This document shows positions 1 to 40,912 of a stretch of DNA of 64,000 bases, piece after piece. The notes beneath the pieces were generated by a model, which was given only the letters and a program-made list of their open reading frames with translations, made no database searches and was not told the origin of the DNA. Each line of letters starts with the position of its first letter. Position 1 is the first letter of the stretch. The position numbers and the translations under genes were made by a program. This DNA is from Escherichia phage 4E8, in the sequence record OQ689734.1; one strand, given 5' to 3'.

Positions 1-36
1 GGCCTCTCATACCCTCCCAATTAATGAGTGAAATAA

Positions 37-132
37 ACGGGGTGAAAGTAATGGGTACTATATTACACGGGGCATTATTAACACGGGATAGGACACGGGG
101 GAAGGTTAGGACGTTCAGGCATGTTCACGGGG
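37..132. repeat. five dispersed copies of (A)CACGGGG in the non-coding leader
   Basis: copies at about 37, 66, 82, 94 and 126. Confidence 0.5.
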
Positions 133-550
133 AAAGGAGGAAGTGAGGGAATAGCCACAATTTTAATGAGGACTCCCCCTTTTTAGGAAACGCGCGGCGA
201 GCACCTAGCCCCATTCGGTCAAATCAGAATTTTAAACAGATATATACATCTTTATTTTTTATAAATCTGTATTTTAAACTGTTATATATAAGGTTAAGAG
301 AGAACTTAATGAACCTAATTAAAGTATTTAGACGGATGAAATGTAAGCATGATTACTATCTTCTTCGTAAAGCTTACGGGGATGAAAGAATACACGGGTT
401 GTATTTGTCAACATGGAAGTGTAAGGAATGTGGTAAGTTAAAGTTTAGTGAATGGGTGGACAGACCGTAATGGAATGGATATTCTGGTTAGTAATAATCT
501 TCTCCTTATTCATATGCTTCTCTATAGCAAGATGTATCAAATATGACTAA

Positions 551-675
551 GCCTTAACATGATAGGGCCTTTATAGGTATGCCTTAATGTGGGGTAGCCT
601 TTATGAAGTCCCCTTTACTTCAGCGTACATGGGTTTATACATGGGTGGGCCTTTAGATGAGTACGCCTTTATGGG
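551..675. repeat. six copies of GCCTT(T/A)A in the non-coding leader before the first ORF
   Basis: copies at about 551, 567, 581, 597, 649 and 665. Confidence 0.5.
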
Positions 676-708
676 TTGATCACTCTCGTTTATCAGAGGA
701 GAACAAAT

Positions 709-975
709 ATGTTTCTAGACTTTTTATCAGAGGTACTTCCCTACTTCCGCACTGAGACATGTGCATTCAAAGTTGAAGAAGATGGAGACACTGAAGTAAT
801 AACTTGTTTGGGTAGATTAGTAGACCTAGACGATGATGAAGATTTTGATGTTACAATAGATTTGAGTTCATTGGGTTGGTTGTATATGCGTTGCTTTATA
901 ACCTACAAACCTGAGACTTATAAAGATTATCGCTATAGTGATAACGTAAATACTGAAGGAGAGAATGATGAATAA
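709..975 (+). CDS. hypothetical protein; start moved to the ATG at 709, which has a GAGGAG Shine-Dalgarno sequence upstream
   Basis: ORF track 676..975; internal ATG preceded by gaggag; acidic protein, first gene after the repeat-rich leader. Confidence 0.4.
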   Translation: MFLDFLSEVLPYFRTETCAFKVEEDGDTEVITCLGRLVDLDDDEDFDVTIDLSSLGWLYMRCFITYKPETYKDYRYSDNVNTEGENDE

Positions 976-1624
976 CAATATGACAGGAACTAATACACTG
1001 AATGCAATCTATGAGAACATGGGATGTAAAGGCGAGGTTGTTTACAATGGTAATCTCCGACCTTTATCAGAGGATATTCTCTATCTGAATAGTGTTCATG
1101 AAACTACTGGAGGTAAATCTCGAGTTGAGATGGTAAAACAACTGGCTCATGGTTCTGTGTATGGGTATGCTCCTTCAACCCGTGAAATATGGGAAGGTTT
1201 GATTCCTCGTACAGAAGCTAAAGATGTGAAAGACTATTTCACTGTAGCAAAAGAAGTTAAACGTAAGTGTCCATCCAATTTAGAAGTTGTTCCGTATGTA
1301 GCTGACAGACATGCACACCTACCGGACTATGCCCGTGAGATGATTGAGATGATTGAAGAAGCCGAGTATGAAGCTCTGAATAATTATTTAAATTCAAAAG
1401 ATCAATGGTCACGTAATGTAGTAGTTGATGAAGAAGGTAATGAAGTAGTTACGTGGGTGCATGTTAGTGAACAAGCTCTGGACCCCGAGCTTGAAGAATA
1501 CAAAAAATTTTTGGCGTCCTCTTCTTTTGATGTAGAGAATGACAAGTCCGTTCCAGTTGGCTGGGAAGGTGAAACTGTAGCTCTCCAGACTTTGTTCAAC
1601 CTACACGTAGGTGATGTAGATTAA
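965..1624 (+). CDS. hypothetical protein
   Basis: 219 aa ORF with ggagag SD before the ATG; followed by a terminator hairpin. Confidence 0.5.
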   Translation: MMNNNMTGTNTLNAIYENMGCKGEVVYNGNLRPLSEDILYLNSVHETTGGKSRVEMVKQLAHGSVYGYAPSTREIWEGLIPRTEAKDVKDYFTVAKEVKRKCPSNLEVVPYVADRHAHLPDYAREMIEMIEEAEYEALNNYLNSKDQWSRNVVVDEEGNEVVTWVHVSEQALDPELEEYKKFLASSSFDVENDKSVPVGWEGETVALQTLFNLHVGDVD

Positions 1625-1635
1625 TAAAAGGTGTT

Positions 1636-1660
1636 GCCTCCTCTCGTGGGAGGCTTTTTG
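1636..1660 (+). terminator. rho-independent terminator-like hairpin (gcctcc...ggaggc + TTTTT)
   Basis: GC stem followed by a T-tract immediately after the stop of 965..1624. Confidence 0.5.
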
Positions 1661-1689
1661 TTATAACGATAATGTAGAAGGAGTATAAG

Positions 1690-2163
1690 ATGTTTGGAGA
1701 AAAAGGAGAACTCACGCCTGCACAGGTAGCTGAGATTACAGGAAGACTGCCCGGAGTAACGGAAGAACTTGAATCCAAGGGCATGGAACCAAGCACAGGG
1801 AAGTTCACTAAAGGTAATAAATTTGGACGTCCCAAAGGTAGTAGAGGTAAATTGACACAGCTCATGCTCGATCGTGTTGCTGCTAGTCATCTGTCTCCTG
1901 ATGAAGTGTTGATTCAGATTTATGAAGATCCAAATATTCCACCCGATCTTAGATTCAAGGCTGCAAGTAAAGTCGCTGATCTGGTATATCCTAAGGCAGC
2001 TTCTGTTGAGGTTAAGATTGAGGAAGAGAATGTAATCAACGAAGAATCATTGAATGCACAAATCAAGGACTTCTTGACTGGAGCACTTGGTGTCGACGTT
2101 ATGCCTCCAGAAGAAGACAACTCTGAGGACGCTGAAAAGGGGGAGGAAGCGGACGAGAGTTAA
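1690..2163 (+). CDS. putative terminase small subunit (by position and a basic GRPKGS segment)
   Basis: 157 aa ORF directly upstream of the large terminase; basic DNA-binding-like N-terminal part, acidic C-terminus; aaggag SD. Confidence 0.4.
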   Translation: MFGEKGELTPAQVAEITGRLPGVTEELESKGMEPSTGKFTKGNKFGRPKGSRGKLTQLMLDRVAASHLSPDEVLIQIYEDPNIPPDLRFKAASKVADLVYPKAASVEVKIEEENVINEESLNAQIKDFLTGALGVDVMPPEEDNSEDAEKGEEADES

Positions 2164-2324
2164 TTAAAGGAAACAGGGAGCTGTCGAAGATCATCTGATT
2201 AGCAATCTAAGGGTTGTTATAATTTTATTGCCACGATGATCTTTTGCAGTGTACCCTTGTAGTGGAGAGGGGAGGTTCTTTGACGAAGGGACTTTCCCTT
2301 TTCTATTTTTAAACTGGAGGAAGT

Positions 2325-3866
2325 ATGTCATTAGATAAACAAATTTATGAAGCTCTAACTGGTAACAACCTTAGTGTAGACGAAAAGAAAGCACTATTGA
2401 ATATGTTGAAAGAGCGTGACCAATGGAGGAAGTATAATAGGATTTTGTCTTTCAAGGCGTATGACTTCCAAAAGAAATTTTATGCAGCAGGATTGAAGCA
2501 TCGCTTTAGATTCTTGTGTGCAGCGAACCGTGTTGGTAAATCTTATAGCGAGGCATACGAGTTTGCTTGTCATGTCACAGGTCGCTATCCAACTTGGTGG
2601 ACAGGATATAAATTTAAAAGACCTATCCTTGCATGGGCAGTTGGTATTACAGGGGATTCCACAAGGAAAGTATTGCAAAAGGAATTGTTTGGTACACCTA
2701 TCGGAAAGGATACAAATTTATTAGGGACAGGTGTCATTCCTCGTGATGCTATCGTCATTGACACGATAGAGCGAGATGGTAACAAACTTCAAATCGTACA
2801 AATCAAACATCAAAATGAAAGAGGAGAGTTTGACGGTTTAAGTACATTAGAATTCCGTTCAACCCAACAGGGTGAACACACATTGATGGGTGCAACAGTT
2901 GACTACATTTGGTTAGACGAAGAAGATCCATATGAATCTATGGCAATCTTCTCTCAGTGCGTAACACGTACACTTACAACTAAAGGTTTAGTTACTATTA
3001 CAGCTACACCAGAGAACGGTTTAACAGAGCTGGTGGATAAGTTTATGAAAGGTGAAGGAGATGAGAACACAGGTTCTCTGTATTTCCAGAATGCTTCTTG
3101 GTGGGATGCTCATGTAGATTTAGGTGGACATATCACTGACCAAGATATTAAAGACATGACTGAAGGTATCCCAACATGGCAGTTAGAGATGCGTTCAAAA
3201 GGTATGCCGTTGCTTGGTTCTGGTTTAATTTATGATGTATCAGATGACATGATTAAGTGTGATCCCTTTGAGATACCTGATACGTGGAAACGTGTTTGTG
3301 CTATTGATATTGGTATCGATCACCCGACAGCCGCTGTTTGGACAGCATATGATGCTAACACTGATACGATTTATGTTTATGACTGCTATAAAGAAGGTGG
3401 ATTTACTCCGGTGTATCATGCACCAGCTATTAATGGTCGTGGTCAGTGGATTCCAGTTATTCTTCCTCACGATGCCGATAATATTGAGAAGGGAAGTGGT
3501 TCGTCTGTTGCTCAATTCTATAAGAATGCAGGGGTTAATGTACAGAGTGAGACCTTCTACAACAAGATTGGAATGGATGGTAAGAAGAACTTCTTTGTAG
3601 AGCCGGGAATTACTGATATTCGTGAACGTATGATGTCAGGTCGTTTTAAAATCTTTAACATTGCTTCATGTGCTAAACTCTTTGAAGAGAAAGCTCGCTA
3701 TCACCGTAAGGTTGGCAAGATTGTTAAGGAACATGATGACTTGATGGATGCTATGCGATATTCAGCTTGTTCTGTAACACATCGTGGACGTAGTAAGCAT
3801 GATGCTAGTTATGGTAGTTCATCGCTTTATCAAGACAATATTAACAGATGGAATCAGACCTACTAA
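2325..3866 (+). CDS. terL: terminase large subunit
   Basis: 513 aa; Walker A-like FLCAANRVGKSY and Walker B-like IWLDEED in the N-terminal ATPase part; C-terminal nuclease-sized domain; located at the head of the morphogenesis module. Confidence 0.85.
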   Translation: MSLDKQIYEALTGNNLSVDEKKALLNMLKERDQWRKYNRILSFKAYDFQKKFYAAGLKHRFRFLCAANRVGKSYSEAYEFACHVTGRYPTWWTGYKFKRPILAWAVGITGDSTRKVLQKELFGTPIGKDTNLLGTGVIPRDAIVIDTIERDGNKLQIVQIKHQNERGEFDGLSTLEFRSTQQGEHTLMGATVDYIWLDEEDPYESMAIFSQCVTRTLTTKGLVTITATPENGLTELVDKFMKGEGDENTGSLYFQNASWWDAHVDLGGHITDQDIKDMTEGIPTWQLEMRSKGMPLLGSGLIYDVSDDMIKCDPFEIPDTWKRVCAIDIGIDHPTAAVWTAYDANTDTIYVYDCYKEGGFTPVYHAPAINGRGQWIPVILPHDADNIEKGSGSSVAQFYKNAGVNVQSETFYNKIGMDGKKNFFVEPGITDIRERMMSGRFKIFNIASCAKLFEEKARYHRKVGKIVKEHDDLMDAMRYSACSVTHRGRSKHDASYGSSSLYQDNINRWNQTY

Positions 3867-9156: not shown

Positions 9157-9224
9157 TTTTAAGACCTATACAAGCTAGTGTGTAATGTATATTCTTTGTC
9201 TACATACAACTAGGAGGACAATCT

Positions 9225-39064: not shown

Positions 39065-40912
39065 TTAGTGAGTGTGATTCCAGTTTAACCCAATCTTACA
39101 GTCAGATGCCAGAGGGCATTCCATTTTGAGATACTCACCTGCTTTACGAACACACTCTTCAGTGAGGGTACGAAGTTTGTTAACATCGTCACGATGTACA
39201 GTGAACTGGCCTTCATCATGCATGTCAATAACCTTCGCACAACGAACACCATCACGCTCAATCCATTTATTGAGGAATAGCATTGCATACTTCATAACAA
39301 TCGCCCCAGCGCTCTGTAAGAGTGTATTTAAGGCTTTATGGACCATAACCTTTCCAGTTGCATCTCTTCTCATTGTAATACGACGTCCATCCACACCGTA
39401 GATATATCCACTTTGTGCTTTCTCTGTCATACGTTCAATAAGGATTGCAATACAAGGATTCTCTGCTAAGAATCTTGCTCTCATGATAGCCCCTTCGTCA
39501 GAGCCTCCACCAACGATAGAACCGAGCTTAGCATCACCTGCACCATAGTTAAAGGCATATATAAACGTCTTAGCGTTATCACGAGTAGGAAGACCAGCAA
39601 GTTTTTGGTTATGTGAGTGAATGTCTCCTTCTAAAAGAATATCTCTGTACATAACAGCAGAAGCTAGACCGCGTTCAGCTTCTCGTTTCTTAGCTGGGTT
39701 GTTTTCTCGCTCTGCTTCAGCGAGCATCTCACGACATTCTTTAATAAGGTAGTGAGCTAGCATCCTCAGCTCAAGACCAGAGCCATCGTAACCTAAGAAG
39801 ATTTCACGACCAGCAGGTACATAGAACTTATAGGCACCTACAGGTTTGTCTTTCTTGCCCGGTTTTCCCACTTCGTAGATAATGTTAGTACCTTTTCGTA
39901 CGTAACACCCATCAGGGATATGGTTGGTAATGATGAAAGGATGGTTATGACTGTCGTCTGAGGAATAGTCAGATTGAAAAAGACTGCGGCACTCGTGACC
40001 AAACAAACCGCGAGAAGGAATATTAACAACAATGCGATGTTTAAAACGAAATGTCGGAGTAGCGCAGCTATTAGCTTCGGCGGACAACTTACCATCTTTA
40101 CGTTCCTTGTCGATAAGCCCGCTAATCAAACCTAGCCTGTGAGCCGCTACAACACGTCTCTTAAGCAAGCTTCCTACACCCCCTAGCTCACCCCCAAGCC
40201 CCTCTTCAAGAGTCTCCTCAAGGTTTGTAGGGGCTGTGGGCCACTTGTTTGATGTAGCCAAAGCTTTTTTGATTTCATCAAAGGTTACAGGTTTCTTCCT
40301 ATTCGGATTAAGACCTAAACCACTGACGTAGGCTTTCATGTAGTTGACAGTGTGATAACGGAAATGTTTATCCAAAAATCTTCGGATATCAGCATCTATC
40401 ATCTCCGCTATCTGTTTCTCTTTAGCATTACCTCGAATCCAAGCAGAATACCATGCAGAGTATGTACCATACTTCTTCATAGCTTTACGAATTTCAAAAG
40501 TATTCCAAGGTTTCTTAGAATAATTCCACTCTGGAGGTATAAAACCTTCATCCATCAAGGCTTCTTTAATACGTGCATCTTTTGATGGGTCAAAATCTAC
40601 ATACTCAACGCAAGTAAACGCCCCACCGATATCTTCTCTTTTAAGACCAACCCTATCGCAATAGAGCTGAGGCCACTTCTGTAAAGCACCTGATTTCTTA
40701 AAAGGCTTAGCATAAGTTGAACCGTCCACCCGCATTTTGGGGAGGAGAGGAATCAGTTCTTTATCAATATTGACAATAATCTCTTTGAGAAGGTGAACAA
40801 ACCACCGAGCGTTTCTTCTGTTGAAGTTGACTCCATGCTTCGCCTGTTTTGAGATTATATCAGCGACTGTCATCTCCGTTATGAAAGGTAACTTATCAGG
40901 GTTATCCATCAC
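39065..40912 (-). CDS. DNA polymerase, family A, polymerase domain only
   Basis: 615 aa; motif A FLGYDGSGLELR, motif B RDNAKTFIYAFNYGAGDAKLG (RxxxKxxxFxxxYG), motif C MHDEGQF; no 3'-5' exonuclease motifs in this ORF. Confidence 0.85.
   Translation of the reverse strand: MMDNPDKLPFITEMTVADIISKQAKHGVNFNRRNARWFVHLLKEIIVNIDKELIPLLPKMRVDGSTYAKPFKKSGALQKWPQLYCDRVGLKREDIGGAFTCVEYVDFDPSKDARIKEALMDEGFIPPEWNYSKKPWNTFEIRKAMKKYGTYSAWYSAWIRGNAKEKQIAEMIDADIRRFLDKHFRYHTVNYMKAYVSGLGLNPNRKKPVTFDEIKKALATSNKWPTAPTNLEETLEEGLGGELGGVGSLLKRRVVAAHRLGLISGLIDKERKDGKLSAEANSCATPTFRFKHRIVVNIPSRGLFGHECRSLFQSDYSSDDSHNHPFIITNHIPDGCYVRKGTNIIYEVGKPGKKDKPVGAYKFYVPAGREIFLGYDGSGLELRMLAHYLIKECREMLAEAERENNPAKKREAERGLASAVMYRDILLEGDIHSHNQKLAGLPTRDNAKTFIYAFNYGAGDAKLGSIVGGGSDEGAIMRARFLAENPCIAILIERMTEKAQSGYIYGVDGRRITMRRDATGKVMVHKALNTLLQSAGAIVMKYAMLFLNKWIERDGVRCAKVIDMHDEGQFTVHRDDVNKLRTLTEECVRKAGEYLKMECPLASDCKIGLNWNHTH

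Follow-up and report, generated by a model that had tools for sequence, protein, structure and literature searches.

The first 700 bp or so of the Escherichia phage 4E8 sequence (record OQ689734.1) carry two arrays of short direct repeats, which raises the question of whether these repeats are sites of action for a protein and, if so, which process they serve. The stretch analysed, here called the window, comprises 64,000 nucleotides of one strand read 5' to 3'; it covers 64 kb of a genome of about 76-78 kb, and the right genome end, hence the second copy of the direct terminal repeat (DTR), lies beyond it. The initial annotation offered regulator or packaging-protein binding sites, promoters and terminal-repeat-proximal elements as explanations. 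Comparison with related phages shows that the arrays are conserved and confined to one strand, and we interpret them as elements of the concatemer junction that act in cis at the DNA level. Which protein binds them is a more tentative matter, for which a small terminase (TerS) is the candidate examined below.

Two conserved repeat arrays at the left genome end

Positions 1-3000 of the window have matches at 84-93% identity in about 97 phages of Escherichia and Shigella, all from the phiEco32 group. This group corresponds to the Gordonclarkvirinae (Kuravirus, Nieuwekanaalvirus and Suseptimavirus), and the window phage is a phiEco32-like podophage. Seventeen phages were compared: the window phage, KBNP1711, Bas89, SU7, phiEco32, Paul, LAMP, XT32, SGF2, NJ01, PGN6866, Bas90, Bas93, rybdy3, 1-6af, TH38 and SDYTW1. 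The features that carry the argument are as follows.

Positions 1..206, strand not given: left DTR, with its right boundary placed by homology at ...GCACCT/AGCCCC (slash at the boundary).
Positions 36..134, plus strand: array 1, five copies of mACGGGkAA, seen as invariant motif columns in a seven-phage DTR alignment.
Positions 166..185, plus strand: ATGAGGACTCCCCCTTTTTA, a stretched array-2 unit and the top-conserved element of the DTR, nearly identical in all 17 phages.
Positions 543..671, plus strand: array 2, RTGR-N4-SCCTTWA units, defined by a 17-phage logo and a pattern search of the window.
Positions 1690..2163, plus strand: putative TerS gene, directly upstream of the large terminase (TerL) gene at 2325-3866.

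Array 2 was initially described as six copies of GCCTT(T/A)A at 551-675. All six are confirmed, with GCCTTWA starting at 551, 567, 581, 597, 649 and 665 (17 occurrences in total on both strands of the 64 kb), and a seventh core, CCCTTTA, lies at 611; the longer 15-bp unit to which these cores belong had been missed. A logo was built from 96 copies (77 distinct) of the 17 phages, with the SCCTTWA core as anchor. Upstream of the core, A-T-G-A occupies positions -8 to -5, T at -7 being found in 73 and G at -6 in 74 of the 77 distinct copies, and a 4-nt spacer of free sequence follows. Because ATGA is conserved upstream of the core across this variable gap, the unit is defined as RTGR-N4-SCCTTWA, 15 bp long. 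Units run head-to-tail in 6-7 copies at a pitch of 14-16 bp, here at 543-557, 559-573, 573-587 (with a degenerate 5' half), 589-603, 603-617, 641-655 and 657-671, and the full pattern has six matches on both strands of the window, all at 543-671. Array 2 lies 340-470 bp inside the left end of the window. SCCTTWA copies occur in 17 of 17 phages, 3-8 in each, 216-470 bp past the DTR end, and the array starts 216-345 bp past it.

The stretched copy of this unit inside the DTR, ATGAGGACTCCCCCTTTTTA, ends 21 nt ahead of the right DTR boundary. It fits the relaxed pattern RTGR-N3-5-CC+TT+WA, which has just four other matches outside the leader on both strands of the window. The element corresponds to the conserved DTR region at about 130-170 described for YF01 (PMC9965538) and to part of the CCCTTTTTTA repeat that lies 21 nt from the terminal repeat end in SU10 (PMC4281155). 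Only some phages have a CCCTTTA-type motif ahead of the left DTR boundary, at a distance of about 20 nt, and this motif was not used as evidence.

Array 1 required a larger correction. Five copies of (A)CACGGGG had been counted at 37-132, whereas exact CACGGGG occurs only three times in the whole window (66, 94 and 126; all within 66-132); what recurs five times on the plus strand is the core ACGGG, starting at 37, 67, 83, 95 and 127, in the order AACGGGG, CACGGGG, CACGGGA, CACGGGG and CACGGGG. The minus strand holds no ACGGG in the first 1178 bases. Beyond the DTR, ACGGG also occurs at 376 and 394, within a gene for a 53-residue protein described below, and ATGGG variants are interspersed with the array-2 units at 629, 641 and 671. 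When positions 1-230 of the window were aligned end to end with the DTRs of phiEco32, Paul, LAMP, KBNP1711, Bas89 and SU7, mean column identity was 65% and the motif columns stood out as invariant islands. Four to five A[C/T]GGG copies lie at matching DTR positions in 17 of 17 phages, with ATGGGTA variants at the corresponding positions of SU7, and the logo mACGGGkAA derives from 46 distinct DTR copies together with 33 distinct copies from the right end. The latter belong to a third ACGGG array, outside the window, which lies to the left of the right-end DTR and 280-420 bp away from it; this array has 2-6 copies spaced about 29-31 bp apart and was found in phiEco32, SU7 and 11 of 11 permuted assemblies covering that region. 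The minus-strand form, CCCGT, is absent across the junction of about 1.6 kb. Since the motif also lies left of the right-end DTR in relatives, the ACGGG arrays both bracket and fill the concatemer junction.

The weight of these repeats depends strongly on the null model. For motifs fixed beforehand, the Poisson probability is 6.5e-11 for five ACGGG and 4e-16 for seven SCCTTWA, and no other cluster of at least three copies per 100 bp occurs elsewhere in the 64-kb window on either strand. Under a stricter null, which admits any k-mer anywhere in 64 kb and was evaluated with 200 order-2 Markov simulations, some 5-mer reached five copies in 100 bp in 25% of simulations and some 6-mer reached four copies in 70 bp in 6%; the corresponding frequencies within 125 bp were 4.5% for a 5-mer with six copies, 1.5% for a 6-mer with five and 1% for a 7-mer with four. 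On the single sequence, array 2 exceeds chance and is moderately significant, and array 1 alone is not significant on the any-k-mer null.

Positional conservation in related phages, whose absence the initial annotation had named as a ground for refutation, is strong: both arrays are kept on the plus strand across the 17 phages, and this conservation is the reason for regarding both as real. The combination of invariant cores and freely varying spacers points to selection acting on the sites and speaks against a recent duplication. Tandem Repeats Finder reports an AT-rich 17-bp duplication at 243-275 only, and neither array. A scan of IMG/VR with AATGAGGACTCCCCC returned three relevant contigs.

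The genome end and the architecture of distant relatives

The register of the window follows from two well-delimited relatives. In a distant-mode alignment, position 31 of the window pairs with position 31 of both Paul and LAMP, whose records open at the physical left end and carry annotated DTRs at 1-193 (Paul, PhageTerm) and 1-172 (LAMP); a 193-bp DTR has experimental support in phiEco32, SU10 and YF01 (PMC4281155, PMC9965538). Because of this register and the mapped DTRs of relatives, position 1 of the window is taken as the physical left genome end. The right boundary at 206 was set by alignment with six relatives and by the conserved distance to GACTCCCCC and GTCAAAT, being placed 12 nt ahead of GTCAAAT in the alignment to phiEco32, KBNP1711 and Bas89. 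By homology, then, the DTR of the window phage would span about 206 bp; the right-end copy was verified in phiEco32. The suggestion of terminal-repeat-proximal elements is thereby borne out, as array 1 lies within a DTR homologous to the 193-bp DTR of phiEco32 and Paul.

Both DTR boundaries in relatives share GCT/AGSC, the left one reading ...CAGTGCT/AGCCT.. and the right one ...GGCT/AGGC.. or ..CCT/AGCC.. (locus L011, 2055-2070; locus L006, 1493-1507), which suggests a single nuclease specificity for both cuts. In single-stranded form, the DTR folds less stably than shuffled sequence (z = +2.26), and a hairpin model therefore gains no support. The left end is a mosaic, since its parts resemble different phages: positions 1-160 are of the KBNP1711/KarlSchell_Bas89 (Nieuwekanaalvirus) type, and from about 545 (545-3000), which takes in array 2 and the genes that follow, the window is closest to SU7-like phages, five of the seven listed array-2 unit contexts being identical to those of SU7. 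In SU7 itself (MZ342906.1; loci L003, 1-249, and L012, 1576-1627), the DTR is probably about 249 bp, as expected by homology, and not 53 bp; the right end of that record has just the first 53 bp of the repeat, which fits its authors' caution on a 53-bp DTR.

Beyond the E. coli phages, the arrangement can be followed in phages with clearly diverged terminases. TerS identity, 92-97% among the E. coli phages, falls to about 50% in Salmonella phage 7-11, Cronobacter phage A24 and Proteus phage Privateer. These three carry 3-5 plus-strand ATGA-N4-[C/G]CATCWA units between a CCCC(C)TTTT end element and TerS, and they have neither the small ORFs (including the Cys/His gene described below) nor the gp4 and gp5 homologues near the arrays. 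Because the units persist where gp4 and gp5 are gone, array position tracks the DTR end and TerS rather than the neighbouring genes.

Metagenomic relatives, L039 to L042, were found through TerS homologues. L039 (TerS 77% identity) has seven SCCTTTA copies, five of them inside an ORF. In this Logan ERR12379733 contig (1566-2375), the five copies fall in two different reading frames of a called 269-aa ORF, and retention of the DNA motif seems to extend to coding sequence. L040 (68%) carries ATGA-N4-6-CCCCTTCA. L042 (51%; Logan SRR24115948 contig, 957-1755) has 13 ACGGG copies on the plus strand and none on the minus strand, together with a composite unit, ATGACCTCCCACGGGGA, in which the ATGA half-site is joined to the array-1 motif. 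Arranged by TerS identity, the 3' half-site is SCCTTWA at 77-100%, CCCCTTCA at 68%, and CCATCAA or CCACGGGG at about 50%. In 7-11, A24, Privateer, L039 and L040, related units occupy the interval from the end element to TerS. Across these sequences, an architecture persists in which G-run arrays surround the end element and a bipartite ATGA unit precedes TerS, with the half-site varying by lineage.

Packaging recognition and competing explanations

The putative TerS gene is followed by a TerL gene whose product matches Terminase_6N and Terminase_6C. When a profile of 28 TerS homologues was searched against the PDB, the two best matches were small terminases (7joq, E 0.0066; PaP3, 6w7t, E 0.22); both fall over the oligomerisation core, and both E-values are weak. 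The candidate has no Pfam match, and a single-sequence phmmer search against the PDB was empty. The same assignment was made for YF01 in the literature on the basis of HHpred (PMC9965538). In the TerS alignment, a 22-residue N-terminal extension is limited to lineages with SCCTTWA arrays. The invariant core includes GRPKGSR, and the top-conserved stretch is GRPKGSR(N/G)K at residues 46-52. We take this stretch to resemble the AT-hook core of HMGA proteins, a minor-groove motif, which gives a hint that TerS may contact the A/T part of the repeat units through the minor groove.

We tentatively favour, without strong conviction, a reading in which the arrays, chiefly array 2 and the related DTR element, are junction or packaging recognition sites for a PaP3-like TerS. 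A ring-shaped TerS would load cooperatively onto the iterated sites; the loaded protein would mark the junction and position the large terminase for two site-specific cuts sharing GCT/AGSC, and packaging would then run rightwards from the left end. Early genes of this group are transcribed leftward from the right end (PMC8948821), which suggests that the right end enters the cell first; packaging would accordingly begin at the left end, where array 2 and the terminase genes lie. Packaging is favoured because array positions track the DTR end and the TerS gene, because a copy of the unit adjoins the cut site, because the half-site changes as TerS does, and because iterated TerS sites are a known solution in lambda and SPP1.

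In those two phages, lambda cosB and the SPP1 pac boxes are iterated small-terminase binding sites beside the cut site (summarised in PMC7672466). The likeness to lambda cosB (gpNu1 sites R1-R3) and SPP1 pacL/pacR is that several sites of one family separate the cut at the genome end from the terminase genes, on the side packaged first, and that a ring-forming TerS with an N-terminal DNA-binding region, putative here, is encoded just downstream. Lambda differs in having three R sites and an integration host factor site instead of 6-7 direct repeats at a 14-16 bp pitch, and both phages differ in their 12-nt cohesive ends or headful cuts, as opposed to a 206-bp DTR, and in a shorter distance to the cut. 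PaP3 offers a further comparison, as the candidate TerS is a remote homologue of its TerS according to the 7joq and 6w7t profile matches and to PMC9965538. PaP3 TerS specifically binds a CCCCTTT-containing 20-mer, the cos 20-mer GCCGGCCCCTTTCCGCGTTA (PMC7672466), and CCCCTTT is also found in the DTR element CTCCCCCTTTTTA and in the unit ATGAAGTCCCCTTTA; this resemblance covers 7 nt only and could be coincidence, and the homology E-values are weak. Because the PaP3 left end has no array of comparable units, the CCCCTTT resemblance stays a weak lead.

The closest parallel in layout is phage T7, whose record has CCTAAAG on the plus strand only, at 17, 41 and 60 within the 160-bp repeat, eight times at 175-332, and at 39671 and 39700, immediately left of the right-end repeat. 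These heptamer arrays were reportedly named SRL and SRR by Dunn and Studier in 1983. As here, a short motif confined to one strand recurs within the terminal repeat and in the unique sequence flanking the concatemer junction on either side, in a linear genome with a short exact DTR, T7-style concatemer processing being assumed for both. The two motifs, CCTAAAG and ACGGG, are unrelated, the phages belong to Autographiviridae and Gordonclarkvirinae, respectively, and no phage RNA polymerase is present here; moreover, the T7 arrays abut the terminal repeat, whereas those described here lie 216-420 bp away, and the family of bipartite 15-bp units has no T7 counterpart.

Several observations weigh against the packaging reading. 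To our knowledge, the role of the T7 arrays has not itself been established. The covariation of half-site and TerS is fully confounded with phylogeny, everything diverging together. Array 2 starts at a distance of 216-345 bp from the DTR boundary, which exceeds that between cosB and cosN in lambda, and its 14-16 bp pitch sets successive sites on opposite faces of the helix. The AlphaFold monomer of TerS is poor, with a predicted local distance difference test (pLDDT) score of 67.5 and a predicted template modelling (pTM) score of 0.33, and Foldseek against the PDB found nothing below E = 2.7. L041 (TerS 62%) carries four ATAGGGT and two ACGGG but no clear array 2. Finally, SU7 has the DTR motif ATGGGTA where other E. 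coli phages have ACGGGG, with TerS 92-97% identical between them; because the array-1 motif differs in SU7 while TerS barely changes, TerS is not easily the reader of array 1, which may bind another factor of junction processing or replication.

An extension of the packaging reading, which we regard as possible but rather doubtful, is that the phiEco32 and 7-11 prolate podophages share one modular junction code, made of bipartite-unit arrays and G-run arrays and read by a PaP3-type TerS. The ATGA half-site would be constant, the 7-8-nt half-site would be lineage-specific (CCTTTA, CCCTTCA, CCATCAA or CCACGGGG), and the G-runs would appear as ACGGG, ATGGG or ATAGGG. In such a code, the variable N-terminus of TerS would co-evolve with the variable half-site.

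Among the alternatives, a replication origin is unlikely but survives best: ACGGG, RTGR-N4-SCCTTWA or both would be iterons that bind a phage initiator or organise priming beside an AT-rich unwinding region. The right-end array does consist of direct, same-orientation iterons about 29-31 bp apart, and in relatives 270-340 bp of 68-69% A+T (genome 57.8%) separate it from the DTR; this recalls lambda ori and plasmid oriV, where direct repeats of one orientation lie beside an A+T-enriched stretch. The drift from ACGGG to ATGGG and ATAGGG between lineages is also what iteron-initiator pairs display, and four DnaA-box-like copies of GTTATCCACA occur in the equivalent region of A24. In that record (L028, 40-229), the four copies read GTTATCCACA or CTTATCCACA and lie in the region equivalent to the right-end/junction zone; we take both forms to match the DnaA-box consensus TTATCCACA. 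Against an origin, the adjacent ORFs include no identified initiator, the stretch is only moderately enriched in A+T, and the repeats, with a core of 5-9 bp or a unit of 15 bp, are short and extend across about 1.2 kb, the terminal repeat included. Array 2 is moreover placed relative to TerS, with replication genes tens of kb away, and the group is thought to replicate in T7 style without iteron origins (PMC4281155, PMC9965538).

It is improbable that the arrays are operators of the left-end operon at which a phage DNA-binding protein, for example the 53-aa Cys/His protein, represses or activates small early genes. The arrangement has some appeal, as the Cys/His gene is encoded between arrays 1 and 2, array 2 has the small ORFs on one side and the gp4 homologue on the other, the array of phiEco32 and Bas89 is split with each half ahead of the ribosome-binding site of a small gene, and ACGGG arrays stand upstream of outward-facing promoter regions at both genome ends. 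However, the homologous arrays of 7-11, A24 and Privateer have no Cys/His, gp4 or gp5 genes nearby, the L039 array persists within its 269-aa ORF, and no sigma-70-like hexamer pair overlaps the arrays. In addition, the 7-11 motif is not common to other mapped late promoters, and an intergenic MEME search found nothing recurrent (PMC8948821).

There is little likelihood that array 2 acts as an intercistronic element at the RNA level, with protein-binding repeats or structure controlling translation of the next gene. It is probably transcribed, in an operon ending at 1636-1654, and it abuts the ribosome-binding site of the gp4 homologue. Yet the predicted fold of 545-712 is no more stable than shuffled sequence (z = +0.56), no Rfam family matches positions 1-2400 at E up to 1, the DTR itself holds a copy of the unit by the cut site, and relatives of array 1 lie in DNA with no evident transcript.

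Chance clustering or remnants of neutral duplication, the explanation left open by the simulations for array 1, are largely refuted by the comparative data and merit hardly any credence, as the relatives are not near-identical here, the cores are invariant in 46 and 77 distinct copies of 17 phages with divergent spacers and strict strand bias, and the arrays are present in relatives at about 50% TerS identity. The same slight standing applies to array 2 as a set of phage-sigma promoters: one unit has TAATGTGG, which resembles the gp36 consensus tAATGTAtA, but TAATGT is missing from the arrays of Paul, LAMP and XT32, and no TAATGTAT occurs in the first 9 kb.

Neighbouring genes and implications

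The description of a 675-bp non-coding leader holds for the presence of the repeat arrays and fails for the absence of coding sequence, as positions 1 to about 206 are DTR and two ORFs occupy 309-470 and 470-550. The remaining features of the left end are as follows.

Positions 221-246 and 263-288, plus strand: AT-rich module AAATCWGWATTTTAAAC..TATATA, present twice and a candidate for a weak early promoter of the small ORFs.
Positions 309..470, plus strand: gene for a 53-aa Cys/His (CxH...CxxC) protein, matching phrog_7696 (E 6.6e-17).
Positions 470..550, plus strand: hydrophobic 26-codon ORF (MEWIFWLVIIFSLFICFSIARCIKYD), whose start overlaps the stop of the 53-aa gene (TAATG).
Positions 688..711, plus strand: ribosome-binding site (TTATCAGAGGAG) and ATG 709 of the gp4 homologue, which matches phrog_12698 (E 1.3e-42) from residue 1.
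Positions 1636-1654 and 1672-1679, plus strand: intrinsic terminator followed by the phage-sigma late-promoter-like TAATGTAG, from promoter and terminator scans.

The unannotated 53-codon ORF that had been pointed out at 309..470 is a conserved protein gene, annotated in LAMP, NJ01, Bas89 and XT32. In an eight-phage alignment at 53-92% identity, residues C12, H14, C38 and C41 are invariant. The 26-codon ORF also occurs in KarlSchell_Bas89 (L006, 1926-2006) and is absent from Kuravirus-type leaders; it has no family match, and its product may be a small membrane peptide. The most likely start of the first large ORF is ATG 709, preceded by the Shine-Dalgarno sequence GAGGAG, and not TTG 676. The sequence TTATCAGAGG recurs exactly three times within 400 bp on the plus strand (690-699, 724-733 and 1064-1073), with four exact copies in the 64 kb; one of the three is the ribosome-binding site of the gp4 homologue, and the other two lie inside coding sequence, both encoding L-S-E. 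Related TATCAGAG or ATCAGTG repeats come after the arrays in Privateer and 7-11. Many records, as well as PHROG 12176, label the gp5 homologue (965-1624, plus strand) an ABC transporter; no Pfam family matches it at E up to 0.01, and the label looks like a propagated annotation without support.

Promoter signals lie outside the arrays. The AT-rich module (AAATCAGAATTTTAAAC..TATATA) follows the DTR as a conserved single copy in all relatives and in two copies in the window phage; it falls below the threshold of the sigma-70 scan, and the duplication may constitute a tandem weak promoter. That scan, based on -35/-10 hexamer pairs with 16-18 bp spacing, found four sites in 1-2400 against a shuffled mean of 6.4, none of them in 37-132 or 543-671. 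For the phage sigma factor, no TAATGTAT occurs before position 9183, and array 2 has a single TAATGTGG only. The earlier proposal of promoters is thus not upheld, with no sigma-70-like site in either array and no phage-sigma tAATGTAt site in the first 9 kb. The terminator and TAATGTAG divide the left-end operon from the packaging genes. In phiEco32, gp36 promoters lie upstream of gene 6, with the consensus tAATGTAtA 6-8 bp upstream of the start site (PMC8948821), and the placement of TAATGTAG agrees with the promoter mapped there.

The arrays are annotated in none of the relatives' records inspected. The accessible literature (PMC4281155, PMC9965538, PMC8399022, PMC7881722, PMC8948821) describes the DTR, the 130-170 region and the CCCTTTTTTA repeat only; the original phiEco32 reports (Savalia 2008, Pavlova 2012), which were beyond its scope, may mention repeats. 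Recognition and cutting of the junction in phiEco32-like phages have been described as unknown, the T7 RNA polymerase needed by the T7 model being absent (PMC4281155).

For annotation, the first 700 bp or so of such genomes should be read as a DTR, two small genes and repeat arrays rather than an empty leader, and the motifs help to find physical genome ends in permuted assemblies. The delimited cis elements, namely the 15-bp unit, its stretched copy 21 nt from the cut site and the mACGGGkAA arrays, make the junction question experimentally simple in a group, Kuravirus and related phiEco32-like phages, that is widely isolated for candidate therapeutic use. If the shared junction code were true, no packaging signal would have been defined earlier for short-DTR phages without an RNA polymerase of their own, and the code would offer a way to re-target packaging specificity and to construct transducing particles or phagemids in this therapy-relevant group.

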